From: a virus
Reading direction: 5' to 3' (one strand)
Length of the DNA: 64,000 bases
Virus record (IMG/VR): IMGVR_UViG_3300045539_000120
Span: 1-64,000 of that record
The number at the start of each line of letters is the position of its first letter. Within the stretch, counting starts at the first letter, position 1. The notes beneath the pieces are model-generated. The model saw only the letters and a list, made by a program, of their open reading frames with translations. It was not told the DNA's origin and did not search any database. Shown in pieces: positions 1,468 through 40,466 of this stretch. The position numbers and the translations under genes are program-made.

Positions 1468-1641
1468 TTAATTATCTAAAATATCTAACATTTCATCGAT
1501 GTGATTTACACAATCTTCAATACTCCTACCACAACCATATGCCTCATCACAATCCTCTGTGTTAGAGAAAATAAACTTAGATTCAGGATGTGCAGGATTA
1601 TAACAATCATTCGCCTCAATTTTGTAATTTTTGTAAGTCAT
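1468..1641 (-). CDS. small hypothetical protein (57 aa, below ORF-track cutoff)
   Basis: ATG at 1641 lies 8 nt downstream of the conserved intergenic element copy at 1645-1722; ORF runs to TAA at 1468. Confidence 0.3.
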   Translation of the reverse strand: MTYKNYKIEANDCYNPAHPESKFIFSNTEDCDEAYGCGRSIEDCVNHIDEMLDILDN

Positions 1642-1644
1642 AGT

Positions 1645-1722
1645 GTATCTGTTTTAATTATAATGTAAATATAACTATAATATTTGATATAAAAAAATCC
1701 TAGTCAAAAAGTTATTAACAAT
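1645..1722 (-). promoter_or_regulatory. conserved intergenic element copy (candidate phage promoter/leader)
   Basis: ctgttttaattataatgtaaatataactataatatttga...aaagttattaacaat; immediately 5' of a minus-strand ATG. Confidence 0.5.
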
Positions 1723-2025
1723 TTAACTAGGATTCCATTCTTTTTTATAAATTAGTTCCCAATGCGCTCGATATTCTCGAACATTCATCATTTTAATTGT
1801 GTAATTTGAGTACATACCATCTTCATAAATACTGACAAATATTGCCATTGATGATGGTGTAACATGGTGTAATTTTGCCCATTTAAAAAGTGCTTTAATA
1901 TTACCCTTCTGTCTCATCTTTTTGGCAAAAGTCTTAAAGTCACAATCCCATCTAGTAGGATAGTAGCTCAGAATACCCGGGATACCAAATCCTATATAAC
2001 CAATATTAAATACAATTTGACTCAT
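1723..2025 (-). CDS. hypothetical protein
   Basis: 100-aa ORF; its stop lies beside the element copy. Confidence 0.4.
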   Translation of the reverse strand: MSQIVFNIGYIGFGIPGILSYYPTRWDCDFKTFAKKMRQKGNIKALFKWAKLHHVTPSSMAIFVSIYEDGMYSNYTIKMMNVREYRAHWELIYKKEWNPS

Positions 2026-3149
2026 TAGTGAGAATCTCCAATGTTATTTTTCTCACCAAATATTAAGTACTCTGGGTTTATAACCTTTGCAACCTTATTT
2101 CTTGCACCAGTAATATGTTTAATTACAATTCCTTCATGTGGTACCTTAGTGCCTTCAATAAAGTTATTGAATGTAAATTTATCTTGTACCTCTTGATTCC
2201 ATAATCCATTATATAATATTTCAACATGTGGAAGTTCTAGAACATCTTCTATGATGTATTCGGTCATCTCAGGGTCAACATAAGTTCCATTGATTGTTAA
2301 ATCAAATGCCGCAAATTCAATTGTATCTAAACCATATTCATAGTTCTTTTGAATTCCTGCACCATAAATTTCACCATACAGAACAAAACCAGAACCAATT
2401 TCCTCAACACTTCTACCTTTCACAGCAGTCCAAAGTTTTTCTTTGATACCAAGAGTTTCGTTAATAGTTCTCCAAACATCAGTTGAATAGAACCCTTGTG
2501 TGTCAGATCCTTTTTCACAGTTATGAGATCCGTAAATATATTCATAATCAATCCACTCATTGGCAATTCCTAAGAATTTTCTTGCCCGATCCCAGAATGA
2601 CAATTTAGATTTCTTTACAATACCATAACGTGCATTTGTACCATGTAATTTTCTGGAGATTTGAACTCCATCTTCTTCAGTAAATAAACCTGCAACATTT
2701 TTCAAGTTTGGAAACTTGTAGTACACATGAAAGTTTTGATTATCTCTCCATTTGATTTTTCTACCAGAAGCCAATTGAATTTGTTTTACGGGTGGTTCGA
2801 ATTTAGTGATACCTAACTCTTCCATTAAGTCTCTACCTTCTCTGATACTTGAAGCTTTGATATGTATTACTGGAATGATTAAACATTCAGAATAAACACC
2901 ACGCAACTTTACAGTACGTACCCTGCTTCCTTTTCTCAAGTATGAAGTAACACCCATCTTTTCAGAAAGTGCCTCTGGGATAACTGCATCTGTTGTTGCA
3001 ATTACAGTTAAGGACCCTTCTTTAAATTCACCTTTCTTTGTGATGGCATTCCATCCTCCAGCAACGACCAATTCAATGTTATCTGCTCCTTCGATTGCTC
3101 TTACTTCGTTTATTTTTGCTACATAGCAAACTGAATTTTGATTTTCCAT
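2025..3149 (-). CDS. ATP-dependent RNA ligase (Rnl-type nucleotidyltransferase)
   Basis: covalent nucleotidyltransferase motif I KLHGTN (K-x-H/D-G) and an N-terminal domain typical of phage/bacterial RNA ligases; sits beside a tRNA array and a PNK-like kinase. Confidence 0.6.
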   Translation of the reverse strand: MENQNSVCYVAKINEVRAIEGADNIELVVAGGWNAITKKGEFKEGSLTVIATTDAVIPEALSEKMGVTSYLRKGSRVRTVKLRGVYSECLIIPVIHIKASSIREGRDLMEELGITKFEPPVKQIQLASGRKIKWRDNQNFHVYYKFPNLKNVAGLFTEEDGVQISRKLHGTNARYGIVKKSKLSFWDRARKFLGIANEWIDYEYIYGSHNCEKGSDTQGFYSTDVWRTINETLGIKEKLWTAVKGRSVEEIGSGFVLYGEIYGAGIQKNYEYGLDTIEFAAFDLTINGTYVDPEMTEYIIEDVLELPHVEILYNGLWNQEVQDKFTFNNFIEGTKVPHEGIVIKHITGARNKVAKVINPEYLIFGEKNNIGDSH

Positions 3150-3166
3150 TTCTATATTTTTTTAAT

Positions 3167-3307
3167 TTATCTGTCTGCTAATCTTTTAAATACTGCTGCA
3201 ACTTCTGGCTCTTCTAATTTCTTTTTCAAAGATTGCCATTTTTCCTCCAAGAATTGGTTGTACTCTTGTTCAGTTTTAAATCCCATCTTTTTCCAATCCA
3301 TTTTCAT
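3167..3307 (-). CDS. small hypothetical protein (46 aa)
   Basis: ATG directly downstream of the element copy at 3310-3400; below ORF-track cutoff. Confidence 0.3.
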   Translation of the reverse strand: MKMDWKKMGFKTEQEYNQFLEEKWQSLKKKLEEPEVAAVFKRLADR

Positions 3308-3309
3308 AA

Positions 3310-3400
3310 TATTGTTTGTTTTAATTATAATGTAAATATAACTATAATATTTGAACTATGAAAACTTTTTTGAATTTATTTCCAAAAAGTTATTAACAAT
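3310..3400 (-). promoter_or_regulatory. conserved intergenic element copy (candidate phage promoter/leader)
   Basis: attgtttgttttaattataatgtaaatataactataatatttgaactatgaaaactttttt...aaaagttattaacaat. Confidence 0.5.
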
Positions 3401-3403
3401 TTG

Positions 3404-3890
3404 TAGTCAGGACAGGAATCGAACCTGCAACGCAAAACTTAATTCGTCTTAGCCTACTTTCACCTGACTTCCGTTCTAATGGAGGCATCGCACCTCAAAG
3501 ACTGTTCATAAACTAGTTTAATTAGCGTAGTCAGGACAGGATTCGAACCTATATGAGTTTCTTTCACCTCCACTCCATATAGAGTTGCGTCTCTCCAATT
3601 CCGCCACCTGACCTTTTGCAATTATGGTTGATTAGACCTCATGAAGTTTATTGCCCTCCAAGCCCAGTTTCCGTAACGGCGCAACTGAATTTCAAAACCC
3701 GCTCTTGCCTCACGCCCAAGAGTATGTCGGTACGTTTTACAGATACGCACATCATCTGAGTAATCAACTCATTGTAGTTAGGGTAGGATTCGAACCTACG
3801 ACATTTGCAACCAAAGGGATGTGATAGACCGCTTTCACATTACGCAATACCTAACTTCCATAAACCTAGCCTGACCTTCCAGACAGTACA
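3404..3890 (-). tRNA. array of at least 4 tRNA-like genes; several are non-canonical (e.g. a ~66-nt element at 3404-3470 with a perfect 7-bp acceptor stem and T-arm but a shortened D/anticodon region)
   Basis: repeated minus-strand T-loop signatures (RC of ggaatcgaacc / ggattcgaacc) with complementary acceptor strands (AGTCAGG/CCTGACT; GGTCAGG/CCTGACT; AGTTAGG/CCTAACT); anticodon arms could not be folded canonically by hand. Confidence 0.4.
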
Positions 3891-3934
3891 TGTCAAAATT
3901 AATTTGGCGCCTTGTTATGTAGTAGGTTCTTATT

Positions 3935-4534
3935 TTATATCATTACATCAATAAATTGTTTCTTCCAATCTAACCAAGGTTCCTTTGTCACCTTGAAATG
4001 GGTTAAATATTTCCAATGCATAAATAGTTTACGTTCATTCCAATCTTCATATTTCTTAATCAGATCACTTTGTTTATCTAGTTCAGTTTTATAAGTATCT
4101 GCCTTTTCAGAAAGTTTAGTAAAAACATCATCTATTTTTGCCAATCGGTTTACTGCCTTTTCAGTTGGTAAACCTTGTACCGATAACGAAACTATCAATT
4201 CTTTAAGATTAACTATTTTACTAATCATAGAATTTAATGTTGGAACACATGCATTATATGAAGTCTTTGCAGATTCTAAATGTCTTTTAAAACCATCAAA
4301 GTTCTCTTGTAATTCTCTGTCCTCTAAATCCTCTTTAAATAAAGATTCGGGATCGATTCCAAAGTATTTGTCAAAATCGTCTCCACCTGGAAGTGGCGCT
4401 TTAACTGCCAAACCTGCAATGTCCATATCTTTAACTTCATTAAGAACCGCAACATAACAATTACCTCGTTGAGTTTCTAAAAGTTCTTTAACCTGTTTTT
4501 CGTTATATAGTTTCATATTATAATTTAATTTCAA
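3935..4534 (-). CDS. hypothetical protein
   Basis: 199-aa ORF. Confidence 0.45.
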   Translation of the reverse strand: MKLNYNMKLYNEKQVKELLETQRGNCYVAVLNEVKDMDIAGLAVKAPLPGGDDFDKYFGIDPESLFKEDLEDRELQENFDGFKRHLESAKTSYNACVPTLNSMISKIVNLKELIVSLSVQGLPTEKAVNRLAKIDDVFTKLSEKADTYKTELDKQSDLIKKYEDWNERKLFMHWKYLTHFKVTKEPWLDWKKQFIDVMI

Positions 4535-4913
4535 AACGTTCTTTCATCTTTACTAATGTTTCTTTTGGAACATTGTGTGAATTTATTCCTCCATGCCTGT
4601 TTTCTACAACTATAGAATGTACTCTATATCCATATTTTTTGGCTAAATCATAGTAGGCCTGCATTTCCCATTCTTGCGTAAATGTGTTTGATACTACTAC
4701 ACTATGCTCATATTTCATAAGAAACTCTACCTCTTCTTGACACCAATCATGGGCTTCTTTAATCAGAGAAAAGTCAAATTTGTAATTTCCATCTCCGTCT
4801 ATAAAATACATATCGGCCTCTTTGTGACAATAATCTTTATCACCAACTAACATTTTTGCCAATGTAGATTTTCCAGCTCCTGGTAATCCTCTTAATAAAA
4901 ATAGTTCTTTCAT
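4518..4913 (-). CDS. P-loop kinase, polynucleotide-kinase-like (AAA_33-type)
   Basis: Walker A GLPGAGKSTLAK at the N-terminus; small size and adjacency to RNA ligase and tRNAs. Confidence 0.5.
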   Translation of the reverse strand: MKELFLLRGLPGAGKSTLAKMLVGDKDYCHKEADMYFIDGDGNYKFDFSLIKEAHDWCQEEVEFLMKYEHSVVVSNTFTQEWEMQAYYDLAKKYGYRVHSIVVENRHGGINSHNVPKETLVKMKERFEIKL

Positions 4914-4914
4914 T

Positions 4915-5160
4915 TTAGTATCTTTTATAATTTATAATGATGGACCATTTAGGCCAGTTTTGATTGGTTTGATTTTCAAGTGTTTTACTACTTACAAATT
5001 CATATCCATTTTCTTTGTTAATAACCGATTGCCAATCATAATTAGGGTCATCTACAGAGAATAAAACTCTAACGTTTTCTTTATTCATAATATTGTTGTT
5101 TCTGTGATTCGTAATATTCCTCTTCAGTGATCGGTCTTTTATCATATATTGCACTAGCAA
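4915..5160 (-). CDS. hypothetical protein
   Basis: 81-aa ORF. Confidence 0.35.
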   Translation of the reverse strand: MLVQYMIKDRSLKRNITNHRNNNIMNKENVRVLFSVDDPNYDWQSVINKENGYEFVSSKTLENQTNQNWPKWSIIINYKRY

Positions 5161-5229
5161 CTAAAAATCCCATAGTGAACGCAGTTATTGCAACTACTAT
5201 AATAATCCACTTAGTATCATCGCTTTCCA

Positions 5230-5616
5230 TTAGTTGATTTGAGCAAATACAGATTCATTAACAAATTGACTATCTTCATTTAAGATGTCTAATTCGTTTT
5301 CAGTCATTTCACGATCTCCGTAATCTGCAGATTCAATGTATGCATCACAAAAATCTCCATAATCTTCCATGTCAATTCCTCCAACCATTACGTTACTAAT
5401 CTTAGAATAATCTAATTTTATATCTTCAGTTACCATTCTATTTAATTCATTTAGGTCAGAAAGAGAACATTGAAATCTTGTTCCTTGGTTTGAATAAACC
5501 GTTTCTACCACAGCGGAAGTTGAATTTTCTTGCAATATATTAACGACAGTGTTTGCGCTAATAATTATACCATCGATCTTAAGATTTTGTCCTTTGTAAA
5601 CTTTGTAATTTTTCAT
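5230..5616 (-). CDS. hypothetical protein
   Basis: 128-aa ORF preceded by an element copy. Confidence 0.4.
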   Translation of the reverse strand: MKNYKVYKGQNLKIDGIIISANTVVNILQENSTSAVVETVYSNQGTRFQCSLSDLNELNRMVTEDIKLDYSKISNVMVGGIDMEDYGDFCDAYIESADYGDREMTENELDILNEDSQFVNESVFAQIN

Positions 5617-5618
5617 AT

Positions 5619-5708
5619 TTGTAGTGTTTTAATTATAATGTAAATATAACTATAATATTTGAACCATGAAAACTTTTTTACACTTATTTTTCAAAAGTTA
5701 TTAACAAT
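5619..5708 (-). promoter_or_regulatory. conserved intergenic element copy
   Basis: gtgttttaattataatgtaaatataactataatatttgaaccatgaaaactttttt...caaaagttattaacaat; the TAA inside ATTGTTAATAAC serves as stop codon of the upstream gene 5701-6309. Confidence 0.5.
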
Positions 5709-6309
5709 CTTCTAAACTATCTGGATAATATAAAAGAGTTGGATTTTTTCTTTGGATATCAATTTCAGGATATTTCTCACTAAACGCTTTAACATCAAAT
5801 CGAGATGTGATTAAATGATTTCCATTTTTAGTTCTGATGTTAGCAATGATTTTAGCGCCAAACGGTCTACATTTAGTATTAATAAATAATTGAACTTCTC
5901 TATCGAATTGTTCATCTTTAGTATCAATATCTACAATCCATCTTTTCTCTTGTGTTTTGATTTGACCAACTACAGAATCAAATAAACCCTTTTGATTTGT
6001 GTTACCATCCTGGATTCTTTGTGCGAGTGCAACCATCATATTAAGTGACACATCAAAGTGATTTTGTTTTTGAACATGAATATATGCGCGAGCCTTAAAC
6101 ATCTCACACAGGTCCTGTATTTCACTCCACCTGCGTTCTAGATGTTCAATACTCTCAATACAATAAGTCTTAATAGTTCTTACTGATTGGTGATTATCTC
6201 TCTCCTCGACTGGCTGATCTTTCTTGCGTTTAAACACATAAAGCATATAAAAGTCTCCTTTGTTTTCAAAGTTTAGGAGAGGTTTGATTATTTCTAGGTT
6301 GTTTATCAT
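5701..6309 (-). CDS. hypothetical protein
   Basis: 202-aa ORF. Confidence 0.45.
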   Translation of the reverse strand: MINNLEIIKPLLNFENKGDFYMLYVFKRKKDQPVEERDNHQSVRTIKTYCIESIEHLERRWSEIQDLCEMFKARAYIHVQKQNHFDVSLNMMVALAQRIQDGNTNQKGLFDSVVGQIKTQEKRWIVDIDTKDEQFDREVQLFINTKCRPFGAKIIANIRTKNGNHLITSRFDVKAFSEKYPEIDIQRKNPTLLYYPDSLEDC

Positions 6310-6310
6310 T

Positions 6311-6619
6311 TTAATAAGCTATTTTATCCTTTGGAACTTCAATTCCATTTAGTGCATTCAATAAAACTTGAATTCCTTCTTCAGTGTTTGGTCTAATAGT
6401 TCCGGCACATTTCATAGAGAATTGTTCATCACTAATATCAGTTCTACCCGTTGAAGTAGCAGATACAGATTTCATAAACCATGGGTTTCGACTAGGTCTC
6501 ATTGTTAAAATGGCGTACCATTTGTTATTACTACATTGTACAAGGGTACCTTCAACACTTGTGGTTGATTTTAAAGGTTTACTTTTAATTACTGTAATCT
6601 CTACTTTTTCAGTTGACAT
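6311..6619 (-). CDS. hypothetical protein
   Basis: 102-aa ORF. Confidence 0.4.
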   Translation of the reverse strand: MSTEKVEITVIKSKPLKSTTSVEGTLVQCSNNKWYAILTMRPSRNPWFMKSVSATSTGRTDISDEQFSMKCAGTIRPNTEEGIQVLLNALNGIEVPKDKIAY

Positions 6620-6701
6620 ATATTGTTTGTTTTAATTATAATGTAAATATAACTATTATATTTGACATAGTAAACATTTATTTAATAAAGTTATTAACAA
6701 T
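6620..6701 (-). promoter_or_regulatory. conserved intergenic element copy
   Basis: tattgtttgttttaattataatgtaaatataactattatatttgacatagtaaacatttatttaataaagttattaacaat. Confidence 0.5.
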
Positions 6702-7247
6702 TTCATCGTAGACGTTTGATTGTTTAATACCTTCACTGCTTCTTGGTGTTAGGACGAAGTTTTCTAGTCCATAACCTCCATTTGCTTGAGGACTCATATT
6801 TAAGTCATCAACCGCAACCCATTCTTTTACGTTTGGATTTAATTCTAAATATTGAAGAATTTCAAGGATTCTTTTGCGTTCTAACCATCCTTTCCACATA
6901 AACAGATCATTTGCCATAGGATCGAATTCATGTAGGTTTGGTGTAATTGCAATAGGTCTTTTTGAGATACCTTGCGCCTCGTAATAATCTCCAAGTTCCT
7001 CTAAGGTTGCATGCAATTTCCAATCAGAACTTACAACTATTTCAGCACCTGTAACTTCAAGTACTTTATTTAATATCTTAATTGCTTTTTTATCAAAATC
7101 ATCAAAACGTATTTCAACAGGTGCATCCTTTAAATTTGGACTGGATTCCGGATTTTGGGATCTATATTTAGACCATTTCTTATTTCTACCTCCCCAATTA
7201 TTTAAGAGACAAATCACACCATCGTTATCTAAGAATATTACCTTCAT
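6678..7247 (-). CDS. HAD-superfamily phosphatase-like protein (start moved to internal Met MKVIFLDNDGV)
   Basis: DxDG-type motif FLDNDGV at the proposed N-terminus; the longer ORF-track start at 7364 would overlap the upstream gene by 113 nt. Confidence 0.4.
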   Translation of the reverse strand: MKVIFLDNDGVICLLNNWGGRNKKWSKYRSQNPESSPNLKDAPVEIRFDDFDKKAIKILNKVLEVTGAEIVVSSDWKLHATLEELGDYYEAQGISKRPIAITPNLHEFDPMANDLFMWKGWLERKRILEILQYLELNPNVKEWVAVDDLNMSPQANGGYGLENFVLTPRSSEGIKQSNVYDEIVNNFIK

Positions 7248-7251
7248 CTTC

Positions 7252-7764
7252 TTATTTCTTTTTAAATTTGTAAAAATCTTCCAACAATTTACGTTCAACT
7301 CCTTTACGGTATTTGCAACCAATAAATGTTGATGTAAAATATCCCATACCTTGTGGAATTTCATGTGCTATTTCTAAAATTGCTCCGGATCTATCAGATG
7401 CTCGGTTCTCAGAATTTGTAGCCAAGATGCATACATCTCTCTCATAAATAAATGCCCACCATTCATTTGCACAACTCCATTCCCTTTCAAACATTTCAGA
7501 TAACCATGCATTTCTTTGATGCACGTGGGCTCTCTCTACTGTTAATGCATCTTTTCTATTTGGAATTCTCGCAAAATCCACGGATGCAAATGAATCTAAT
7601 GCTGCCTGTGTAATACCTATAACCCTCCAACTATCTGTGTAAAATGCACCTTGTGATTGTGAAAATCCTCTAATCAAATAGGTTCTATTTACCCCTGGTG
7701 TATTATATGCCACTTGTGTTGCTTTAAAAATATTAAAGTAGCTTTCAATATGTTCTTGTATCAT
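7252..7764 (-). CDS. hypothetical protein
   Basis: 170-aa ORF directly downstream of an element copy. Confidence 0.45.
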   Translation of the reverse strand: MIQEHIESYFNIFKATQVAYNTPGVNRTYLIRGFSQSQGAFYTDSWRVIGITQAALDSFASVDFARIPNRKDALTVERAHVHQRNAWLSEMFEREWSCANEWWAFIYERDVCILATNSENRASDRSGAILEIAHEIPQGMGYFTSTFIGCKYRKGVERKLLEDFYKFKKK

Positions 7765-7850
7765 TGTGTTGTTTTAATTATAATGTAAATATAACTAAAG
7801 TTTATGACCCGTGAAAACTTTTTTACACTTATTTTCAAAAAAGATAAAAA
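7765..7850 (-). promoter_or_regulatory. conserved intergenic element copy (variant lacking the GTTATTAACAAT module)
   Basis: gttgttttaattataatgtaaatataactaaagtttatgacccgtgaaaactttttt. Confidence 0.45.
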
Positions 7851-7891
7851 AGTCTCTCTATCTCATGATAAATATCAATAAACCAAATCCC

Positions 7892-8029
7892 ATGGCAAAA
7901 GCTGCAACACAATCTAATGTACTTGAAAAACCAAAAAAGGTAAGAAAAGGGGTACATGCAAAAACAAAATCTTCAAAAAACAAGGGTTCTCAAAACTACA
8001 AAAAGATTTACAAAGGTCAAGGTAAATAA
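7892..8029 (+). CDS. small lysine-rich basic protein (45 aa), the only plausible plus-strand gene here
   Basis: MAKAATQSNVLEKPKKVRKGVHAKTKSSKNKGSQNYKKIYKGQGK; followed by a GC-rich non-coding region and a terminator readable on the plus strand; start codon choice uncertain. Confidence 0.25.
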   Translation: MAKAATQSNVLEKPKKVRKGVHAKTKSSKNKGSQNYKKIYKGQGK

Positions 8030-11910: not shown

Positions 11911-11954
11911 AATTTGTTTATTTTTAAGTGTTTATTGCTATTATATATTCCTAT

Positions 11955-15195: not shown

Positions 15196-15269
15196 TAGTC
15201 AATAATGGACTCGAACCATTGACCTCCTCGGTATCAGCGAGGCGCTCTAACCAACTGAGCTAAATGACT
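15196..15269 (-). tRNA. tRNA-Ile(GAT)
   Basis: acceptor AGTCATT/ATTGACT (one mismatch), D-arm GCTCAGTTGGTTAGAGC, anticodon loop CTGATAC. Confidence 0.75.
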
Positions 15270-15699
15270 ATATATTCTTACCTCGATATGTTGAAGTTTG
15301 ACTATGGCAATTTGGACATAATATCCTTAGATTATCTAATTTATGATTAGTTCTATTGCCATCAATATGGTCTAATTCTAAAGATATATGATTATCCATC
15401 CACATACCTATATTACATATCTCACATTTATGTTCTTTAATACCTTCTCTTATCAACCTAATTCTTAATTTATTAGTTTGATAACTAGGGTGGTTTCCAA
15501 TTAAAATATCACTTAATTCTATTTTTGAACCATTGTGTCTTTTATTAGTACCCTTTCCTGATTGATTAGGATTATATACGTTTAAATCGATCGCTTTCTT
15601 TTTAAATGTATTAAAATGCATCTTTAATATAGCGGCTGCTTCGCTCATAGATTTTGCATTCTTGCACACATCTATTATTTGTTCATTTGTATTTTCCAT
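15268..15699 (-). CDS. HNH homing endonuclease
   Basis: CEICN...HIDGNRTNHKLDNLRILCPNCH HNH motif; inserted between tRNA genes. Confidence 0.75.
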   Translation of the reverse strand: MENTNEQIIDVCKNAKSMSEAAAILKMHFNTFKKKAIDLNVYNPNQSGKGTNKRHNGSKIELSDILIGNHPSYQTNKLRIRLIREGIKEHKCEICNIGMWMDNHISLELDHIDGNRTNHKLDNLRILCPNCHSQTSTYRGKNI

Positions 15700-15750
15700 A
15701 TTATATATATCTAAACACTAGTGACAAATTTTCCAACGTGTTAATTATAG

Positions 15751-16552: not shown

Positions 16553-16615
16553 TGTTTTTGTTTTAAATTATTAATTATTACTATTGTTATATTGGTGAAA
16601 CTTATATTGTTTCAG

Positions 16616-16840
16616 TTATTTTTCAGTAAATTTTGATAATGTTTCGCCATCAATTAAAATTGCAAGAATTGGATCCTCTTTTGTTGATGTAATATACTTT
16701 ATATATGCTACTGGATTTTTCACATTATCATATACTTTGATTCGACTTCCATAATGTACCTCTACGCTATGTCCACCTGGTGTTGTTGATAGGGAATTTG
16801 TTCTAAATTCCTGGCTAACAAATACTTTACTTTTTCCCAT
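16616..16840 (-). CDS. hypothetical protein
   Basis: 74-aa ORF. Confidence 0.35.
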   Translation of the reverse strand: MGKSKVFVSQEFRTNSLSTTPGGHSVEVHYGSRIKVYDNVKNPVAYIKYITSTKEDPILAILIDGETLSKFTEK

Positions 16841-18140: not shown

Positions 18141-19419
18141 TTTCGTATATTGCTTTAACTGTTGGAAATCTTAAACTTGTTCCACCATTTTGGTTGTGAG
18201 TTTCTTCGAAATATTGGACACATATTTGTTTTCCAAGAATTTCACTAGGATTTTCGAAATAATATCTTTTTTGTTCGTGTGTAAATCCACTACCTACTTG
18301 TACTCTACTTCCTTTATGTTCTATCACAACATTTTTCATCATTAACTCTTCAACTTCTTTTCCATCTACGATAACTCTGTTTAATGCATTTTCAATATCG
18401 ACAACCACATATTCTGCATCAAAGAATTGTTTAACCTTTAAGATATCATTGCTACGTTTTCCTTGGTAAGTTGCATCTCTACGTAACATTAATCCTTCCC
18501 AACCATTTTCTTTAGCTAATTGACTATAGTATGTTATCATTCTCTCATCAATTAGGATTTGTTGGTCTAAACATCCAATATTTTTAAATTCTTTTTCAAA
18601 GAATAAATTATCTAATTGCACATTTCTAATTGAAAATGGAGTTGTTCCTTCCTTTGTAACAAATTCATCCATCGATAATATATCAAACATATAAAAGAAT
18701 GGATTCTCAATCGTATGGTCTTTACGTTTAATTTCTTTAATGATACCTTGGAAATTCTCATTTCCATTTGCATCCATCATACAAATTTCTCCATCAATTA
18801 CCATATTCTTTAGACCTAATGAAATTATTTCAGCATCTAAATTTTTAAGTGTTAGAAATTCATTTCCTCCACGTGAAAAATACGTAGGTTCACCTTCCGC
18901 ATCGATAATACAAATACATCTACAACCATCTAATTTTCTACTAACATACCAAACATCTTTGTCCATGTCAACTTTCTTAGCGGTTTTTTCATCGTATGAA
19001 TTTGCCAAAGCAACATCAAATGTTGGAATCAAGTTTGGAATAACTTTATTAACCATTGAAGCAGTAGAACGTGTTTTTAAATTTCTATCAATAATAGAGA
19101 AAATTAAATCCTCGTGCTTTTTGTTTGCTTCTACAAATCCATTTACTAAACTAATTGCCAAGTGACCTGTGATAAATCGTATTGATAAATCATCTAACAA
19201 TTTAAAAAGATCGCTATAACCATATTTGATTAAGTTTGAATTCTTTTTGCAATTAGCAGAAGTTACTCCATATTGTTTAAACGTATTGTAAGTATATTCT
19301 AAAGCATTACGAACTGCTTCATTTTCTGAGTATTGTTTTAACACATTTAATTTATCAGTGTTTGAGTTTGTAGAATTTTGTGCATCTACGAATTCTTGTA
19401 TTTGTTCTAAATTTGTCAT
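18124..19419 (-). CDS. ATP-dependent DNA ligase
   Basis: adenylation motif I RKLDGCR (KxDGxR), motif IV-like EGLMLR, motif V-like LKVK. Confidence 0.6.
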   Translation of the reverse strand: MTNLEQIQEFVDAQNSTNSNTDKLNVLKQYSENEAVRNALEYTYNTFKQYGVTSANCKKNSNLIKYGYSDLFKLLDDLSIRFITGHLAISLVNGFVEANKKHEDLIFSIIDRNLKTRSTASMVNKVIPNLIPTFDVALANSYDEKTAKKVDMDKDVWYVSRKLDGCRCICIIDAEGEPTYFSRGGNEFLTLKNLDAEIISLGLKNMVIDGEICMMDANGNENFQGIIKEIKRKDHTIENPFFYMFDILSMDEFVTKEGTTPFSIRNVQLDNLFFEKEFKNIGCLDQQILIDERMITYYSQLAKENGWEGLMLRRDATYQGKRSNDILKVKQFFDAEYVVVDIENALNRVIVDGKEVEELMMKNVVIEHKGSRVQVGSGFTHEQKRYYFENPSEILGKQICVQYFEETHNQNGGTSLRFPTVKAIYENGRDC

Positions 19420-19502
19420 AATTTGTTTGTTTTAATTATAATGTAAATATAACTATTAACTTTGACCCGTGAAACATTTATTTGATAAAGTTATTAACAA
19501 TG
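19420..19502 (-). promoter_or_regulatory. conserved intergenic element copy
   Basis: atttgtttgttttaattataatgtaaatataactattaactttgacccgtgaaacatttatttgataaagttattaacaat. Confidence 0.5.
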
Positions 19503-20041: not shown

Positions 20042-20367
20042 TATTTTTTTAGGTAGTTTCTATAGCTAATTGTTCTTTTTGCAATAATTTCAAGGCGAGA
20101 TTCTGGATTCATTTCCATAATTCTTTCAACAGATTCAAAATAACTTCCTTTTCTCCATGAAGATTCCTTTTTAGATACTATGGTTTTATTCAATTGATAG
20201 ATTCGAATATAACGACTTCCGGTTGTTTCTCTTCTTCGAACATAACCACTTTCATAACTTAGATAATCACATTTAGCAATTGGGTCATGAAAACATTGAG
20301 TTCCATTGTTTGCTTGGCGTTGACTCGTTACTTCGATTAATCCTAATACATTTAATTTACTTGTCAT
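20041..20367 (-). CDS. hypothetical protein
   Basis: 108-aa ORF. Confidence 0.4.
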   Translation of the reverse strand: MTSKLNVLGLIEVTSQRQANNGTQCFHDPIAKCDYLSYESGYVRRRETTGSRYIRIYQLNKTIVSKKESSWRKGSYFESVERIMEMNPESRLEIIAKRTISYRNYLKK

Positions 20368-20368
20368 A

Positions 20369-20432
20369 ATTTGTTTGTTTTAATTATAATGTAAATATAA
20401 CTATAATATTTGACCCGTGAAAACTTTTTTGC
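20369..20432 (-). promoter_or_regulatory. conserved intergenic element copy (no GTTATTAACAAT module)
   Basis: ttgtttgttttaattataatgtaaatataactataatatttgacccgtgaaaactttttt. Confidence 0.45.
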
Positions 20433-20546
20433 AATTATTTTTTATTTTTTTTATTGATAATATTTCCATTATCATCTACCTCAGGTGCTGCCCGAATTGC
20501 AAGTACAATCCATATTATATATATGACAGCTATTAATAAAATACCC

Positions 20547-20887: not shown

Positions 20888-21574
20888 TTATTTGAATTTA
20901 TTTATATATATTCTAATTAGCATTACAACATCCATTGCATCTTCAAGTGCATTATGTGTTACAACACCATCAATTCCAGCACGTTGCTTACATTGGTCTA
21001 AACTTGGAATTGATTCGTCATTAATCCAATCCACAAATAAGATGCCTGGATCTAGAACTCTACTACGAATTGAAAATACTTGTTTCCATCTCGGCAACTT
21101 CTCTAAGAATTTCTTGTCAAATCCTGCAAAGTTCTTACCTGCGCAGTTCAGGTAGGTTTTTACCATATTTGAACCTAAAATTGGATATGGAATACCATCA
21201 ACTATTTTCATTTGTTTATTTAAAAAGTTAGGGTCTAAATCAACCAAACCATTTCTGAAACAAAATTGATACAGTGCCTCTACAACCTCATCTTCATGAT
21301 AAAACTTGGCTCCAAATGATTCCTCAACTTCTTGCTTTAATTCATCGGTTTTTGATTCAGAATAATCCTTCATTGCTTGGATTAAATCTTTGTTTAAATT
21401 GAGTGCAAAGATACTGCCATACACACTTTCGCGCTTAATAACAGCATGAAACTTTGGTAATTCTTCGAATGGAAGAGGATTTAAAGTGTCTTCAATTACT
21501 GCTCCTATTGAAAGGATTTGATTAAGATCTGCGTCTAATCCGGTGGTCTCGATATCTATTGAAATATACTTCAT
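20888..21574 (-). CDS. DEDDh-family 3'-5' exonuclease (DnaQ-like)
   Basis: Exo I SIDIETTGLD and Exo III HNALEDAMD motifs. Confidence 0.7.
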   Translation of the reverse strand: MKYISIDIETTGLDADLNQILSIGAVIEDTLNPLPFEELPKFHAVIKRESVYGSIFALNLNKDLIQAMKDYSESKTDELKQEVEESFGAKFYHEDEVVEALYQFCFRNGLVDLDPNFLNKQMKIVDGIPYPILGSNMVKTYLNCAGKNFAGFDKKFLEKLPRWKQVFSIRSRVLDPGILFVDWINDESIPSLDQCKQRAGIDGVVTHNALEDAMDVVMLIRIYINKFK

Positions 21575-22674: not shown

Positions 22675-22740
22675 GTTGTTTGTTTTAAATTGATATGTAA
22701 ATATAACTATAATATTTGACCTGTGAAAACTTTTTATAAA
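22675..22740 (-). promoter_or_regulatory. conserved intergenic element copy (variant)
   Basis: ttgtttgttttaaattgatatgtaaatataactataatatttgacctgtgaaaactttt. Confidence 0.45.
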
Positions 22741-24273: not shown

Positions 24274-24275
24274 AA

Positions 24276-24364
24276 TATTGTTTGTTTTAATTATAATGTA
24301 AATATAACTATAATATTTGAACCATGAAAACTTTTTTACACTTATTTTCAAAAAGTTATTAACA
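24276..24364 (-). promoter_or_regulatory. conserved intergenic element copy
   Basis: attgtttgttttaattataatgtaaatataactataatatttgaaccatgaaaacttttttacacttattttcaaaaagttattaacag. Confidence 0.5.
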
Positions 24365-24416
24365 GAAAAAAGTCCCTTATTAATAAGGGACTTTGATATA
24401 TCTTTTATTTATTGAA

Positions 24417-25482: not shown

Positions 25483-25483
25483 T

Positions 25484-25565
25484 AATTTGTTTGTTTTAAT
25501 TATAATGTAAATATAACTATTATATGTGAACCGTGAAAACTTATTTTTATAAAGTTATTAACAAT
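25484..25565 (-). promoter_or_regulatory. conserved intergenic element copy
   Basis: taatttgtttgttttaattataatgtaaatataactattatatgtgaaccgtgaaaacttatttttataaagttattaacaat. Confidence 0.5.
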
Positions 25566-27749: not shown

Positions 27750-27994
27750 TTTCCTTTATGTGAACCCCATTGAAAGTTACCCATTCCAACTACAATATAT
27801 TCACAACCTTCAAGAGTGTATGTCCTATAAGTTCTATCAGAATATTGTGAAGTACTATCTAATTCGTAACGACTAGCACTAGTATTTTGATGTGGGTCTT
27901 TATAATTTTCTGGTTTGCAGCTAGTAACCATAAAGATTACTAGTGCAGCCAAGATTATTATTATTAATGGTATGGGTGAGTTTTGTCTATTCAT
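27719..27994 (-). CDS. small secreted or lipoprotein-like protein
   Basis: hydrophobic N-terminus ending VTSCKP. Confidence 0.35.
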   Translation of the reverse strand: MNRQNSPIPLIIIILAALVIFMVTSCKPENYKDPHQNTSASRYELDSTSQYSDRTYRTYTLEGCEYIVVGMGNFQWGSHKGNCTNIIHKQK

Positions 27995-29493
27995 TATAGA
28001 TTAGTTAAACGTTTTCTAATTTCTGTCAAAGTAGTTTGGTTTTCTAATTGGCCATTGATATAGATAGTTTTTAACATTCCTTTACTCTCATCTTCCCATG
28101 AGCATTGATCGACTAGCATATAACAATCGTTAATACTTTTATTAAAAATTTTAGCAACATGCAATAAACCTTTTGCAGATTTCTTAACACCATCATCTGT
28201 GATTGGATCTTTAAAGATTTCACGACCTTCGATTGTGTAAGCTGGACTTCCAGATTCTGCTGGATGTTTAACTTCTACATAGGTGGCTTTCATTGCAAAA
28301 CCAAATGTATCTCTAGTGTTATATTGGTATGTAAAACTTCCAACACCTAATACAATATTTGTACTTGCAAAACCTTTTGCCTCTAATCTTGTGAAGATTT
28401 GTTCAGCACGGTCTAATGTAATACTGTCTCCGTAGATTGCTCCAATATGAGGGTCTAATACTTTATAACCTTGGTCGTTAATAGTTCCACCAAATACATC
28501 CCAAAGTAATTCAATAACTCCTTTATCTTGTGGCATTGTTCCAGGAATACTGTACTCACAACCACAAATAATATCTACTGGATCACCAGAGTCAGGTCTA
28601 ATAACTACTTTACCATCACGGGCTAAAATCTCTTCTTTCAAAGTAACGATATGTTCGGTACAAACTTTCCATAAATCCCAAGTATCTGATACAATTGAAA
28701 GAATTCCTGTTGGATATGTTTCCATCAAGTTTCTAAATGTTCCAACCTCATCTTCTTTACTTCCAGCACACATCACTGAGTGTTCAGTCGCATTCACAGA
28801 TCCAGATACAAATCCAGTTTCATTATAGAATTTACGTGCTCCAAAGATTGCTGGTAAACTGTCTGAACCTGAGAAACTTGTCAAGTGACCTAATCCTGAA
28901 CTAATAGTTGCATCAATAGAATCCATACCTCTCATTGAGAAATCATGTGCTTGCCAATCTACGAACCAACCTTTTTCAGCATCAGTTTTTTCTTGCCATG
29001 AAGTAAATAATTTACGATATGCATGCGCAATAGTTGCAGAAGTCATTGGTTTCCATAACAGGTTAGAAATAACTGTTTCTAAATAATTTGTAATCCAATA
29101 GAAATCCGGATGTGTATTATAAATTGTCAATACTGGAACTCTCATTGGTACTAAACTACCTTCTTCAATTGATTTAACAACGATAGGCAAATAACCTAAA
29201 TCATGTAAAGCTTCGAAGTGAGATACGTCATAGTCTGTATTTAAATACATTGACAATTCATTTTTCATTTCTCCACAAACTTCATCTTTAGGTTTACTAA
29301 AGAAATCTTTTTCAAAAGCTTCGTGAATTTGTTTAACTACCATTTGTTGTCCAAATGATACTAATTGATCGCAACCTTGGGGTGCGTACTTATTACTACG
29401 AGGAGTAAAGTTAGAATAAACCAACGTTGTTCCTTTTGGATATTGTTGGTGATGTCCTGTTTTGTAACCGTCTGTTAAGAATAATGGATTCAT
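27994..29493 (-). CDS. nicotinamide phosphoribosyltransferase-family protein (NadV/NAMPT-like; could be a Namat-type enzyme)
   Basis: N-terminal NPLFLTDGYKTGHHQQYP signature and ~500-aa length. Confidence 0.75.
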   Translation of the reverse strand: MNPLFLTDGYKTGHHQQYPKGTTLVYSNFTPRSNKYAPQGCDQLVSFGQQMVVKQIHEAFEKDFFSKPKDEVCGEMKNELSMYLNTDYDVSHFEALHDLGYLPIVVKSIEEGSLVPMRVPVLTIYNTHPDFYWITNYLETVISNLLWKPMTSATIAHAYRKLFTSWQEKTDAEKGWFVDWQAHDFSMRGMDSIDATISSGLGHLTSFSGSDSLPAIFGARKFYNETGFVSGSVNATEHSVMCAGSKEDEVGTFRNLMETYPTGILSIVSDTWDLWKVCTEHIVTLKEEILARDGKVVIRPDSGDPVDIICGCEYSIPGTMPQDKGVIELLWDVFGGTINDQGYKVLDPHIGAIYGDSITLDRAEQIFTRLEAKGFASTNIVLGVGSFTYQYNTRDTFGFAMKATYVEVKHPAESGSPAYTIEGREIFKDPITDDGVKKSAKGLLHVAKIFNKSINDCYMLVDQCSWEDESKGMLKTIYINGQLENQTTLTEIRKRLTNL

Positions 29494-29575
29494 ATATTGT
29501 TTGTTTTAATTATAATGTAAATATAACTATTATATTTGACATGGTAAACATTTATTTAATAAAGTTATTAACAAT
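29494..29575 (-). promoter_or_regulatory. conserved intergenic element copy
   Basis: tattgtttgttttaattataatgtaaatataactattatatttgacatggtaaacatttatttaataaagttattaacaat (near-identical to the 6620 copy). Confidence 0.5.
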
Positions 29576-29576
29576 T

Positions 29577-29780
29577 TTAATTTTTTCTAATTCCTGTTAC
29601 CATTACATATTTAAACGTTCCATTTGATAAAAACGTATGTTGAATAAATGTTACCTCGTATGTTGCGGCTTTTTCCATTGTTATTAATTCATCTATTAAT
29701 GGTTTTTCAACTTCGCAAATAAAATCATGTTCGCAAACACCTTTATTCATTAGGATAAATCTACACTTCGTCATTGTCAA
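29577..29780 (-). CDS. hypothetical protein
   Basis: 67-aa ORF. Confidence 0.3.
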   Translation of the reverse strand: MTMTKCRFILMNKGVCEHDFICEVEKPLIDELITMEKAATYEVTFIQHTFLSNGTFKYVMVTGIRKN

Positions 29781-30564
29781 TATTTTTAGATGGGTTTAAC
29801 AATCCTCTAATAAAAAATCTGTCCTGGGTAAATGTTGGAGTTTCAATAACTTGCCATTTGTTTCTGGTAAAAGTTCCGTTATCATTTGTTGTTGTAACTT
29901 CAACTTTAGCAATCGCTCCTCCTCTTTTCTTACGGAAATCATAATCATTCCAATTAATTCCTTTTTGGAAGATAAATTCTTGCATTTGATCAGTTTTAAC
30001 TCCATGCAGTTCTTTAGTACTATAAAGGCTTTGTGCAACTGAAGAGATACTATTTCTTACAGCATCTTGCTGTCTCCAGATAAAATAGTTTTCTACCTCA
30101 TCAATAAATGGAATTTGAAATGCTCTAGCATCGAATTCTGCCATTCTCATTGCTTTAATATGCTCAGGTTCCAGAAATATTTGACTATTTCTCATCATCC
30201 TCATCATTCGGAGTCTGTTAAATTCTGAGGTTGCCATAGATGCAGCAACACTTACCATTTTCTGCAGATTATTGTCGAACCAAGCATGAGTTCCTAAGTC
30301 ATCAAAGTCTGTTAGGACTAAACTAATCTCATCTGATTGTACATAACCAAATTTAGCACCTTGAATATTCTTACAAAGATATGCAGTAGTTGCATTCATA
30401 TCTTCAATAAGACCCTCATCAAATGGTCTTGTTAATCCTTTAGTGTAAGTGTGGAATGCCTTACCATCAATTCTAATAATTGTGTAAGTTCTTCGTGGAA
30501 GTTTGATTCTAGTTCTATCCTCATAGAACTCTTTCATTCTGTCGCCAAGTGCGTCATTTTTCAT
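29761..30564 (-). CDS. Thg1-like protein (tRNA-His guanylyltransferase family, 3'-5' nucleotide addition enzyme)
   Basis: TIIRIDGKAFHTY, RPFDEGLIEDM and YVQSDEISLVL align with the conserved Thg1/TLP catalytic core (VVRLDGRNFH..., SDEYSFVF). Confidence 0.55.
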   Translation of the reverse strand: MKNDALGDRMKEFYEDRTRIKLPRRTYTIIRIDGKAFHTYTKGLTRPFDEGLIEDMNATTAYLCKNIQGAKFGYVQSDEISLVLTDFDDLGTHAWFDNNLQKMVSVAASMATSEFNRLRMMRMMRNSQIFLEPEHIKAMRMAEFDARAFQIPFIDEVENYFIWRQQDAVRNSISSVAQSLYSTKELHGVKTDQMQEFIFQKGINWNDYDFRKKRGGAIAKVEVTTTNDNGTFTRNKWQVIETPTFTQDRFFIRGLLNPSKNIDNDEV

Positions 30565-30895: not shown

Positions 30896-31369
30896 TTATT
30901 TAATTTGATTTTTAACTAAATTTAATGCTTGTCCTAAAAGGTTTAAACCTAACCAATAAGATGGGTCATCAATTCCTTCTGCATTTTCATCAAGTCCAAT
31001 ACCCCAAATATTATCTAATGGAGATGCTTCAACAAAAAAGCGATCACCTGTGTTTAACATTTCGTATCTTAATTCAGGATTTTGTTTGAATTTTGCCAAG
31101 TTTCCTTCATAAACAATTGCCAAACAATTTTTATCCCAAGTTGCTTTATCAAAATTTTGGATTTGTCTACCATATTTCTTTTGCTCTCTTGGATTCGTTT
31201 CTTGCATAATTTGTTCTGCAATATCTTCATCTCCAAATAACAATGCTTTTTGATGCATCATATATTGTTCACAAGAATTATATTCAATATTGTCAATTGT
31301 CATTGGCGCTTTATGCCATTGTGAGTAAATTCCATTCCAGAAAAATACATGTTTGTCTGTGATTTTCAT
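30896..31369 (-). CDS. NADAR-domain protein (YbiA-like)
   Basis: VFFWNGIYSQW...EQYMMHQKALLFGD...IWGIG pattern of NADAR/DUF1768. Confidence 0.65.
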   Translation of the reverse strand: MKITDKHVFFWNGIYSQWHKAPMTIDNIEYNSCEQYMMHQKALLFGDEDIAEQIMQETNPREQKKYGRQIQNFDKATWDKNCLAIVYEGNLAKFKQNPELRYEMLNTGDRFFVEASPLDNIWGIGLDENAEGIDDPSYWLGLNLLGQALNLVKNQIK

Positions 31370-32568: not shown

Positions 32569-32784
32569 TTATATTAATTTTAAGTGTTTTAATTCCTCTA
32601 TTGCATCGTCAAATGCTTCTTGCCAAGTTCGGTGTAAATACCAATTTTTAATTTCGATTCTTTCGTAGTTTCCAAAATGTGTATACTTAAATATATCATA
32701 TGCATACTTAGGGGCACTCGTCTGGTCTAAACTTATTTCTATAATGTAACCACGTTCCGTATATAATGAATCAATGGTGTACAT
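32569..32784 (-). CDS. hypothetical protein
   Basis: 71-aa ORF. Confidence 0.4.
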   Translation of the reverse strand: MYTIDSLYTERGYIIEISLDQTSAPKYAYDIFKYTHFGNYERIEIKNWYLHRTWQEAFDDAIEELKHLKLI

Positions 32785-33680: not shown

Positions 33681-33681
33681 T

Positions 33682-33771
33682 ATGTGTTTGTTTTAATTTA
33701 TATGTAAATATAACTAAAAGTTTCTATATAAAAAAATATTTAACTACTTATTTTTAAAACTTATTAACAAT
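33682..33771 (-). promoter_or_regulatory. conserved intergenic element copy (variant)
   Basis: tatgtgtttgttttaatttatatgtaaatataactaaaag...aaaacttattaacaat. Confidence 0.45.
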
Positions 33772-36240: not shown

Positions 36241-36244
36241 AATG

Positions 36245-36335
36245 TTTTGTTTTAAATTGTTTGTTTTAATTATAATGTAAATATAACTATTAAATTTGAC
36301 CCGTGAAAACTTATTTGCAAAAAGTTATTAACAAT
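36245..36335 (-). promoter_or_regulatory. conserved intergenic element copy
   Basis: ttgttttaaattgtttgttttaattataatgtaaatataactattaaatttgacccgtgaaaacttatttgcaaaaagttattaacaat. Confidence 0.5.
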
Positions 36336-36858: not shown

Positions 36859-36950
36859 AATTTGTTTGTTTTAATTATAATGTAAATATAACTAATTCCC
36901 GTGACATAAAAAAATTTAATTGTACTTATTTTCAAAAAGTCTCCGGAACA
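36859..36950 (-). promoter_or_regulatory. conserved intergenic element copy (variant 3' module)
   Basis: aatttgtttgttttaattataatgtaaatataactaattcccgtgacataaaaaaatttaattgtacttattttcaaaaagtctcc. Confidence 0.45.
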
Positions 36951-40394: not shown

Positions 40395-40466
40395 AATTTT
40401 AATTTTGATTAATAATATTCAAATATAACTAAATAAAATGACATAAAAAAACATTGTTAATAACTT

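Follow-up and report, generated by a model that had tools for sequence, protein, structure and literature searches.

A probable Bacteroidota-type promoter-leader cassette, repeated and predicted to be read early by the host polymerase, in a T4-like jumbo phage

The stretch of viral DNA analysed here (positions 1 to 64,000 of IMG/VR record IMGVR_UViG_3300045539_000120; all 64,000 nucleotides are referred to below as ‘the window’) has a GC content of ~31%, carries all of its genes on the minus strand, and includes 24 tRNA genes. Amongst the genes that could be identified are a T4-type large terminase (62654-63955), a tail sheath of 977 amino acids (59666-62599, minus strand), a small sigma factor with regions 2 and 4 (49537-50133), NAMPT, a DNA ligase and an RNA ligase; distributed between genes is a near-identical repeated element, which is the subject of this report. 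The sheath is nearest to those of huge uncultured phages, the Tenacibaculum phages PTm1, PTm5 and pT24, the Prevotella Lak phages and Sphingomonas phage PAU; PTm1 and the Lak phages have been placed in a T4-like jumbo group whose members lack their own RNA polymerase, using sigma factors together with the host enzyme (PMC7824862). Shine-Dalgarno-like motifs precede 4 of 101 genes, i.e. below the background of 10.7%, and a scarcity of this kind is typical of Bacteroidota. Because of the terminase, the relatives of the sheath, the sigma-reliant group to which these belong, the scarcity of Shine-Dalgarno motifs and the occurrence of the repeat family in Chryseobacterium phage MA9V-2, the window is, as judged from its sequence, part of a T4-like jumbo myovirus with a Bacteroidota host. 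A megablast search with 12 kb of the window against GenBank phages gave no match.

Copies of the element were counted by anchoring on TATATTT[AG] within the window. This gives 23, all intergenic and all on the coding (minus) strand, confined to 1.6-53.7 kb and with none in 54.8-64 kb, where the terminase and sheath are found; its 33-nt 3' module has 11 matches at one mismatch or fewer, all on the minus strand, with 0 expected. In 21 copies a predicted leader runs to an ATG, and in the other two (43677 and 44695) a tRNA follows, which upholds the placement 5' of start codons that had been proposed in a first-pass annotation of the same DNA. The 19 copies listed there were all recovered, as were four of the five that it had called degenerate (40393, 44656, 45858 and 49262); the fifth, at 16556, is a decayed look-alike without a -7 box. 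Measured from the upstream dyad (GTTAATAAC, present in 15 of the 23 copies) to the ATG, a short form of 81-83 nt and a long form of 91-93 nt can be told apart, with three copies stretching to 95-103 nt owing to longer leaders. Further details of the anatomy were borne out: the copy at 20369 has no dyad, a terminator hairpin (39467-39444) sits between dyad and box in the copy at 39401, and two genes, ending at 5701 and 53463, take their stop codon from the first TAA of the dyad. The ‘dyad alone’ described at 49310 was a misreading, as the dyad is followed there by a hairpin (49310-49283) and then by a perfect TATATTTG box (49269-49276). The copies, together with the look-alike, are as follows (TSS, predicted transcription start site; ORF, open reading frame).

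1642-1722 (minus): short form; dyad 1711-1722 within a hairpin loop, box TATATTTA 1666-1673, TSS 1661, ATG 1641
3308-3400 (minus): long form, the copy singled out in the first-pass annotation; dyad 3389-3400 right after tRNA-Pro, box 3333-3340, TSS 3328, ATG 3307 (46-amino-acid ORF, then RNA ligase)
5617-5708 (minus): long form; dyad 5697-5708, its TAA the stop of gene 5701-6309, box 5641-5648, TSS 5636
6620-6701 (minus): short form; dyad 6690-6701 read through by the upstream ORF, box 6644-6651, TSS 6639
7765-7818 (minus): no dyad; box 7786-7793, TSS 7781, 17-nt leader
16553-16601 (minus): decayed look-alike; GTTTCAC block and AATTTAAAACAAAAACA leader, no TATATTT box
19420-19501 (minus): short form, 5' of the DNA ligase; dyad 19490-19501, box 19444-19451, TSS 19439
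20368-20424 (minus): no dyad; box 20392-20399, TSS 20387
22675-22730 (minus): no dyad, no TATAAT; box 22698-22705
24274-24365 (minus): long form; terminator hairpin 24394-24369, then dyad 24354-24365, box 24299-24306
25483-25565 (minus): short form; dyad 25554-25565, box 25508-25515
29494-29575 (minus): short form, 5' of NAMPT; dyad 29564-29575, box 29518-29525
33681-33771 (minus): long form, 5' of the PRPP-synthetase-like gene; dyad variant GTTAATAAG 33760-33771, box 33705-33712
36241-36335 (minus): short form with 33-nt leader; dyad 36324-36335, box 36278-36285
36859-36915 (minus): no dyad; box 36883-36890
39402-39494 (minus): hairpin 39467-39444 between dyad and box; dyad 39483-39494, box 39427-39434, dyad centre still at -65
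40395-40452 (minus): degenerate, with perfect box TATATTTG 40420-40427; inverted dyad 40453-40464 adjoins the end of an HNH endonuclease gene
43645-43726 (minus): 5' of tRNA-Glu; dyad 43715-43726, box 43670-43677, no TATAAT, ~46-nt leader to the tRNA
44663-44720 (minus): 5' of tRNA-Phe, no dyad; box TATATTTG 44688-44695
45855-45916 (minus): degenerate; terminator hairpin 45916-45893 abuts box TATATTTG 45876-45883
49226-49325 (minus): dyad, hairpin and box; dyad 49314-49325, hairpin 49310-49283, box TATATTTG 49269-49276, dyad centre -54
50134-50236 (minus): long form with 31-nt leader, directly 5' of the phage sigma-factor gene; dyad 50225-50236, box 50169-50176
53389-53470 (minus): short form; dyad 53459-53470, its TAA the stop of a 49-amino-acid gene, box 53413-53420
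53613-53668 (minus): no dyad; box 53636-53643

Bacteroidota sigma-ABfr promoters consist of a -33 TTTG and a -7 TAnnTTTG element, ~19-21 bp apart (Bayley 2000; Vingadassalom 2005; PMC6847099; PMC9723704; PMC7366714). This pattern, which could not be fitted in the first-pass annotation, does fit the element: TATATTT(A/G) matches TAnnTTTG at seven of eight positions in 19 copies (box TATATTTA) and at all eight in four (box TATATTTG). In Flavobacterium psychrophilum the housekeeping -7 box TAnnTTTG occupies -12 to -5 and the median 5' untranslated region is 24 nt (PMC9723704); in F. johnsoniae there is almost no variation at T-12, A-11, T-8, T-7, T-6 and G-5, positions -10/-9 tend not to be G, a -33 element can hardly be discerned, and A at -3, -6, -12 and -13 favours translation (PMC6847099). 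All 23 window copies have T-12, A-11, T-8, T-7 and T-6, and every one has TA at -10/-9, with no G there, as TAHHTTTG demands; the box is preceded by T-13, and the -5 position is A in 19 copies and G in four. Further upstream, TTTT(C/A/T) at -36 to -32 gives a weak, 3/4 match to the -33 TTTG (replaced by a terminator T-run in three copies), an element that is in any case faint or undetectable in Flavobacteria; an A/T tract lies from about -38 to -56.

Setting the box at -12 to -5 puts the predicted +1 on the A of ATAATTAAAAC (ATAATT), giving predicted leaders of 17-21 nt in 18 copies, 31-39 nt in three and, in the two upstream of tRNAs, ~46 nt. The TATAAT hexamer would therefore straddle the start site rather than act as a -10 box; in that role it would leave a leader of 6-9 nt, and it is lost from copies 43677, 44695 and 22705, which keep the TATATTT box. 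The leader is A-rich, with no G and no Shine-Dalgarno site; A is present at -14 to -11 in 75-95% of copies and at -3 in 75%, a pattern which, in sequence, matches that favouring translation initiation in Flavobacteria.

Leaders of a second class, 31-34 nt long and so ~11 nt above the 20-nt mode, occur at 50134-50164 and 36241-36273, and in 13 copies in relatives, and are built by repeating a AAAACAAA unit. At the tRNA-linked promoters (43640-43662 and 44658-44680, minus strand) a conserved GTTATTTGACATNTTGRTAATAAT replaces the usual leader, and is kept in relatives (L001 near 3940, L007 near 13310 and 13700, where L001-L015 are related stretches compared with the window); a leader of the tRNA precursor, a signal for processing and a small RNA are all conceivable roles for it. 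Sigma-70 readings of the element itself were rejected: with TTTACA as -35, the hexamer abuts TTATAAT, an impossible spacing, the best arrangement (TTTTCA-N18-TATATT) reaches 9/12, and the window shows no enrichment of sigma-70-type matches. On the plus strand, antisense to copies, TTGACA/TTGTCA-N18-TATAAT does fit the sigma-70 consensus perfectly or almost so at 6613-6642, 19413-19442, 20361-20390 and 53382-53411, the palindromic ATTATAAT and the gene starts ATGTCAA/ATGACAA producing these matches between them; in a Bacteroidota host they probably have no meaning, but in E. coli clones they could fire.

Exact core words of the element are present in 23 metagenome stretches and in at least 13 viral contigs of IMG/VR. 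The coding DNA of several of these relatives is 70-91% identical to that of the window, and some have only the repeats in common; the relatives from the metagenome scan are at 75-91%. Ga0208916_10000007 (102.6 kb) and JACCDZ010734547 (103.8 kb) are amongst the relatives. A BLAST search with one element also matches the Chryseobacterium phages MA9V-1 and MA9V-2, and, by profile search, 40 kb of MA9V-2 contain seven copies, at about 30.9, 32.9, 35.2, 44.1, 49.8, 60.7 and 60.9 kb of OR513085. MA9V-2 is in culture, with Chryseobacterium indologenes MA9, and its copies carry hairpins. In total, 114 unique copies were collected in 387 kb from 41 sources, of which 105 contain TATATTT[AG] (box TATATTTA, with A at -5, in 101 and TATATTTG in four), with a modal leader of 20 nt. 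In three of four orthologous groups the identity of the box is 100%, and in the fourth, where A and G are swapped at -5, it is 88-100%; the flanks are 34-79% identical. Conservation spans -37 to +17, or ~55 nt, with blocks in other phages at -36 to -33 (TTTT), -26 to -24 (TCA), -13 to -3 (TTATATTTACA) and +4 to +11 (AATTAAAA), and with variants specific to particular genomes (ACACTATAAT...AATAACACC in L008; GCTTATATTTACATATAAT in MA9V-2). Neither a jumbo-phage review nor the MA9V-1 genome paper describes a promoter family for these phages. Position, orientation, conservation in relatives and host-type promoter grammar all back the original suggestion of a promoter/leader that defines one class of transcription units.

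The same data bear on two readings that would deny the element a promoter. Were it a REP- or MITE-like repeat that came from the host and had nothing to do with the expression of phage genes, then its being an intergenic repeat would be explained and nothing further. A 24-mer core with one degenerate position has a single, chance-like match, with no flank or protein similarity, amongst the genomes of 185,579 bacterial and archaeal species, one for each; on this basis the family is no REP-like repeat of the host. Its copies also keep to one orientation, show neither terminal inverted repeats nor target duplications, and are present in the viral contigs and related metagenome contigs described above, such that an origin in exact host copies is effectively refuted and the idea retains next to no probability.

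Alternatively, the element might act at the RNA level only, with no promoter, as a leader for translation or processing or as a riboregulator in read-through transcripts. The leader does belong to the near-identical block, and its richness in A agrees with the rules for efficient initiation in Flavobacterium (PMC6847099). We nevertheless regard this as highly improbable, as the best-conserved positions (-13 to -3 and -36 to -33) lie upstream of the leader that would be needed, copies stand before tRNAs, where translation is absent, and a leader lacking G cannot form a stable structure. Rfam returns tRNAs only, both at the gathering threshold and at E≤1 on 1500-8000, with no family matching the element. 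Save at canonical terminators, the upstream region has no stable fold: folding -95 to -13 against shuffles gives z-scores of -1.7 to +1.6 in 19 of 21 copies, the two exceptions carry canonical terminators, and canonical hairpins are found at just five copies (1673, 24306, 39434, 45883 and 49266). In three of these (39434, 45883 and 49266) the terminator comes right before the box, and would deprive the downstream gene of a read-through transcript.

The dyad is the second component of the element. ATTGTTAATAAC has 14 exact minus-strand matches and one exact plus-strand match in the window, against 1.8 expected on both strands; the dyad GTTAATAAC is never apart from a copy, except for the inverted one at 40453-40464, which abuts the degenerate promoter at 40395-40452. 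An orthologous copy in L003 (2504) has no dyad where the others have one; the dyad is therefore not needed for the core. Amongst the 60 dyad-bearing unique copies across relatives, its centre lies at -66 to -64 in 37, at -55/-54 in 21 and at -45 in two, accounting for 60/60. The spacers between dyad and box are diverse (TTTTTGAAAATAAGTGTAAAAAA, TTTAACAAAAAATTAACA, two unrelated terminator hairpins), yet are 28, 37-38 or 47-49 nt long; the leaders of these copies, by contrast, vary (13-34 nt, and one of 51). That the dyad is a protein-binding site, as was proposed from its symmetry, is plausible, and is strengthened by its confinement to centres at -45, -55 and -65. Steps of a helical turn suggest a predicted protein site coupled to, or facing, RNA polymerase. 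E. coli class I activators (e.g. CRP at -61.5/-71.5) and UP elements have an upstream site that can be displaced by whole helical turns (~10-11 bp) and is functional on the correct helix face only. The phage dyad likewise keeps to one helix face, an analogy that rests on spacing alone; the phylum and sigma factor differ from those of E. coli, and any protein partner of the dyad is putative.

Other roles considered for this region were rejected. The dyad is no terminator, as a 4-bp stem around a loop of 1 nt cannot fold and genuine hairpins occur to one side or the other of it; nor is it a second promoter, the spacing of TAAC-TTTTTG being wrong for TAnnTTTG. An inverted repeat between the dyad and the -33 block, AACTTTTT...AAAAAGTT, is not kept in L008 and L012, and so was dropped. 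The dyad sits at gene ends and is read through by the upstream ORF in three cases. Unrelated upstream genes end in (E/K)-D-C-stop-stop, encoded by GA(A/T)GATTGTTAATAA (5701-5712, 53463-53474, L002 6190-6205 and L004 near 900); the 5' edge of the repeat therefore supplies its neighbours with their C-terminus and stop codon. L013 (~4040-4060), L014 and L015 (near 11650) have two dyads in tandem, set 11 bp apart (GTTAATAACTTGTTAATAAC), and TTAAC repeats every 11 bp after them.

The dyad, the A at -5 and the ~55 conserved nt could be taken together as the mark of phage-specific control, in which a dedicated phage protein, encoded elsewhere in the genome, or a hijacked host protein would sit on GTTAATAAC and the TTAAC repeats, on a single helical face at -45/-55/-65, and recruit or block polymerase at ~60% of the promoters. 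We put this forward tentatively, as a minority possibility. The outcome might be class-I-type activation or shut-off, with the identical leader as a common handle for post-transcriptional shut-off; we know of no such architecture described for the Bacteroidota polymerase or for phages of these bacteria, and the phased dyad and A-5 are the parts of the element that could hide something new.

Which form of polymerase reads the element? The phage sigma factor (49537-50133), first suggested as a possible reader, is not upheld in that role: its own gene lies directly 3' of a copy (50176; box 50169-50176), sigma factor and element do not co-occur, and the structural genes carry another motif. Over more than 3 kb upstream of the sigma gene, no further promoter of the host type can be seen. 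MA9V-2, which has the promoter family, contains no homologue of the window sigma factor detectable by tblastn, and LR756500, which encodes a homologue of 33% identity, has no element in the 40 kb around it.

The other motif, ATATATAAT, is found as GATATATAA(T/A) at 62626, 59653, 57536, 54764, 45500 and 45069, before structural genes and some tRNAs, with the structural genes in 54.8-64 kb carrying GATATATAAT. A wider version has 14 matches on the coding strand and 0 on the other:

N-ATATATAA-W (minus): 62626-62635, 59653-59662, 57536-57545, 54764-54773, 48649-48658, 46147-46156, 45500-45509, 45069-45078, 20901-20910, 20514-20523, 16698-16707, 15700-15709, 11940-11949, 98-107

These matches lie 5' of the sheath, of other structural genes, and of tRNA-Ser and tRNA-Arg, often with a very short leader or none (an ATG directly after 15709); L006, which covers the structural region, has three GATATATAAW matches, all in gene orientation. 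The second motif resembles a -10-only late promoter, by analogy with T4 TATAAATA, and phage-directed transcription would more naturally target it than the repeat.

A phage-controlled class, for example of middle promoters, would instead have host core enzyme read the repeat with a phage sigma factor (that at 49537-50133, or a different one), or have a phage activator redirect the host holoenzyme by recognising TTTTCA...TCA, the dyad or the start-site region. Large phages such as T4 and SPO1 provide a precedent in their middle promoter classes; the window does encode a sigma factor with regions 2 and 4, a phased dyad fits an activator, A replaces a near-invariant G at -5 in 101 of the 114 copies, and the conservation from -37 to +17, including the TCA at -26 to -24 and AATTAAAA at +4 to +11, exceeds that of a normal host promoter. 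Against this, the sigma gene itself stands behind a copy with no other host-type promoter evident, MA9V-2 and LR756500 uncouple sigma factor and element, no ECF-type -35 AAC / -10 CGT pattern is present, and ATATATAAT is available as a separate motif for phage-sigma transcription. In addition, A and G at -5 are interchanged between orthologous copies (A in window copy 43677, G in L001 3967), which suggests that the two are interchangeable. We consider a phage-controlled class to be unlikely.

Comparison of related genomes reveals what happens at copies over time. In L002 and L006, a block comprising the 46-amino-acid ORF, the RNA ligase and a 100-amino-acid gene (window 3396-1733) is placed between homologues of 53.6 and 53.4 kb, a move of 50 kb with its left junction inside a copy. 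In L004, a copy, a 96-amino-acid ORF and a second copy precede the sigma gene, against one copy in the window, and small ORFs occur there singly in a row, each with a copy of its own; L003 and L007 are without the block formed by the 49-amino-acid gene, a copy and a 76-amino-acid gene; and the gene upstream of orthologues of copy 50176 differs between genomes. Related genomes thus differ by cassette insertions and deletions, several with a breakpoint at a copy, which resembles the behaviour of PeSL (promoter-early stem-loop) elements in T4. The PeSLs of T4-type phages combine a stem-loop, an AT-rich tract, an early promoter, a Shine-Dalgarno site and an ATG, and are associated with hyperplastic regions and indels (Arbiol et al. 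2010, PMC2839356; Comeau et al. 2014, PMC4122927); Mot-box ‘PmSL’ elements have also been described (PMC4122927).

It could be argued from this that the repeats are mainly recombination substrates, i.e. mobile cassettes homogenised by recombination or by a dyad nuclease, with promoter activity secondary or weak. Consistent with such a role are the indel and relocation breakpoints at copies, the presence of two HNH endonuclease genes (one abutting the inverted dyad), the identity over 33+ nt amongst paralogues, and the genome-specific variants of L008 and MA9V-2, which suggest concerted evolution. Copies are, however, always oriented with the downstream gene and at a fixed distance from its ATG, the promoter box is their best-conserved part across distant phages, and the strict phasing of dyad and box is left unexplained. 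Orthologous copies also keep features of their own, such as the extended leader of 50176, and have therefore been inherited in place. As the main function we think recombination a distinctly poor candidate; it complements a role as promoter and does not exclude one.

Synthesising these observations, we propose that the element is a cassette made up of a Bacteroidota-type promoter and a ready-made leader, predicted to be read early by the host polymerase, with an optional phased upstream site, and doubling as a point of recombination; we place the probability of this reading at roughly 0.6. In this model, host RNA polymerase would read the copies without needing a phage protein, in which case these would form the early (or main non-structural) class, driving ~22 short transcription units that cover accessory genes, tRNAs and the phage sigma factor, with the structural genes using the second motif, ATATATAAT. 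The unmodified host enzyme is favoured by the match of the box to host grammar, by the position of the sigma gene behind a copy, by the failure of sigma factor and element to co-occur, and by the separate motif before structural genes. The dyad ATTGTTAATAAC would most likely be an optional promoter-associated site, bound by a transcription factor or by the alpha subunit of polymerase, that tunes or switches a subset of promoters. Being long direct repeats, the copies would also serve as recombination points, at which gene cassettes may be gained, lost or moved between related phages.

Several points count against this model. The host enzyme as early reader is favoured to a modest degree only: the A at -5 replaces a nearly invariant G and may mean that recognition is not by unmodified host sigma-A, and the -33-like block is without the G of TTTG. 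Start sites and promoter activity are predictions from sequence, with the box scored against the Flavobacterium consensus, which may differ from that of the host's own promoters, and the early timing comes from gene content and analogy with T4 alone. Identity over 33+ nt is far beyond what sigma recognition needs, which suggests either that something else also reads the element (a phage factor, or a protein acting on the leader) or that recombination has homogenised the copies. A Pfam search of ~80 window proteins brought up no candidate for binding the dyad beyond the sigma factor, two HNH nucleases and a SWIM-finger protein.

Some of the genes around the copies form sets. One comprises RNA/tRNA-repair functions, at 2025-3149, 4518-4913, 6678-7364, 29761-30564, 37631-38035, 38348-39088 and 52348-52800, with members that include an RNA ligase, an AAA_33 kinase, HAD_SAK_2, a Thg1-like protein, cREC_REC, a CCA-adding/PolyA_pol head domain and a PNKP-type phosphatase; beside 24 tRNAs, this set suggests a counter-measure to host anticodon nucleases. 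NAMPT (27994-29493) and a PRPP-synthetase-like gene (32784-33680), each with a promoter copy directly 5' of it, together with a NADAR-domain protein (30896-31369), look like an NAD+ salvage/ADP-ribose set. The two HNH endonuclease genes lie in or beside tRNA clusters; that at 40467-40979 ends at the inverted dyad (40453-40464), and that at 15268-15699 starts directly at a ATATATAAT motif.

Repeated promoters are ordinary for big lytic phages; for this group of phages, none are described in the papers searched, and the transcription signals of Bacteroidota phages and of the jumbo relatives infecting Tenacibaculum and Chryseobacterium, and of the Lak phages, are essentially uncharted. Our findings do not overturn current understanding, and the element is unsurprising in principle; its value lies in annotation and as a genetic part. 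A ~55-nt consensus with a predicted start enables transcription units to be annotated in this clade, and the cassettes are predicted to be compact, strong promoter-leader parts for Flavobacteriia genetics. The A/G variation provides a concrete test of how strict a Bacteroidota sigma factor is for G-5, and the phased dyad a system in which to ask if upstream activators or alpha contacts act in Bacteroidota as in E. coli.

Amongst known systems, the housekeeping promoters of Bacteroidota are alike in having TA..TTT at -12 to -6, no G at -10/-9, a weak, T-rich -33-like block with AT-rich DNA between, and a short leader without a Shine-Dalgarno site and with A at -3 and -12/-13; they differ in that the phage copies mostly have A for G at -5, C/T for G in the -33 block, and ~55 rather than ~8 conserved nt. 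The early promoters of T4 are numerous, strong, of extended consensus and used at the start of infection, as is predicted for the present copies, in a different phylum and with a different sigma factor. Halovirus HF2, a large myovirus, has classes of near-identical intergenic repeats that are promoters by reporter assay (PMC8707807); its host and promoter type are archaeal, and it has no sequence relationship to the present family.

The closest likeness is to PeSLs. Both families are composite cassettes (AT-rich tract, early-type promoter, translation start region, ATG) repeated tens of times, mostly in the accessory (hyperplastic) regions of large myoviruses and rarely in structural modules, located at the breakpoints of insertions, deletions and replacements, and accompanied by degenerate ‘half’ copies; excision and integration through mini-circles between tandem copies, as for PeSLs, would be a prediction for the present family. 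The promoters of PeSLs, however, are of the sigma-70 type (TTGACA-N17-TATAAT) where those of the present family are of the Bacteroidota -7/-33 type, PeSLs have a Shine-Dalgarno site where these have none, and the stem-loop found directly 5' of PeSL promoters has a canonical counterpart in only ~5 of 23 copies, with a 12-bp dyad at -45, -55 or -65 instead. Because of these differences in promoter grammar, Shine-Dalgarno site and hairpin, the present family, as read from its sequence, works like PeSLs and is not a member in the strict sense; its cassette polymorphisms extend the PeSL idea of promoter-mediated gene shuffling past the T4-like phages of Proteobacteria and Cyanobacteria.

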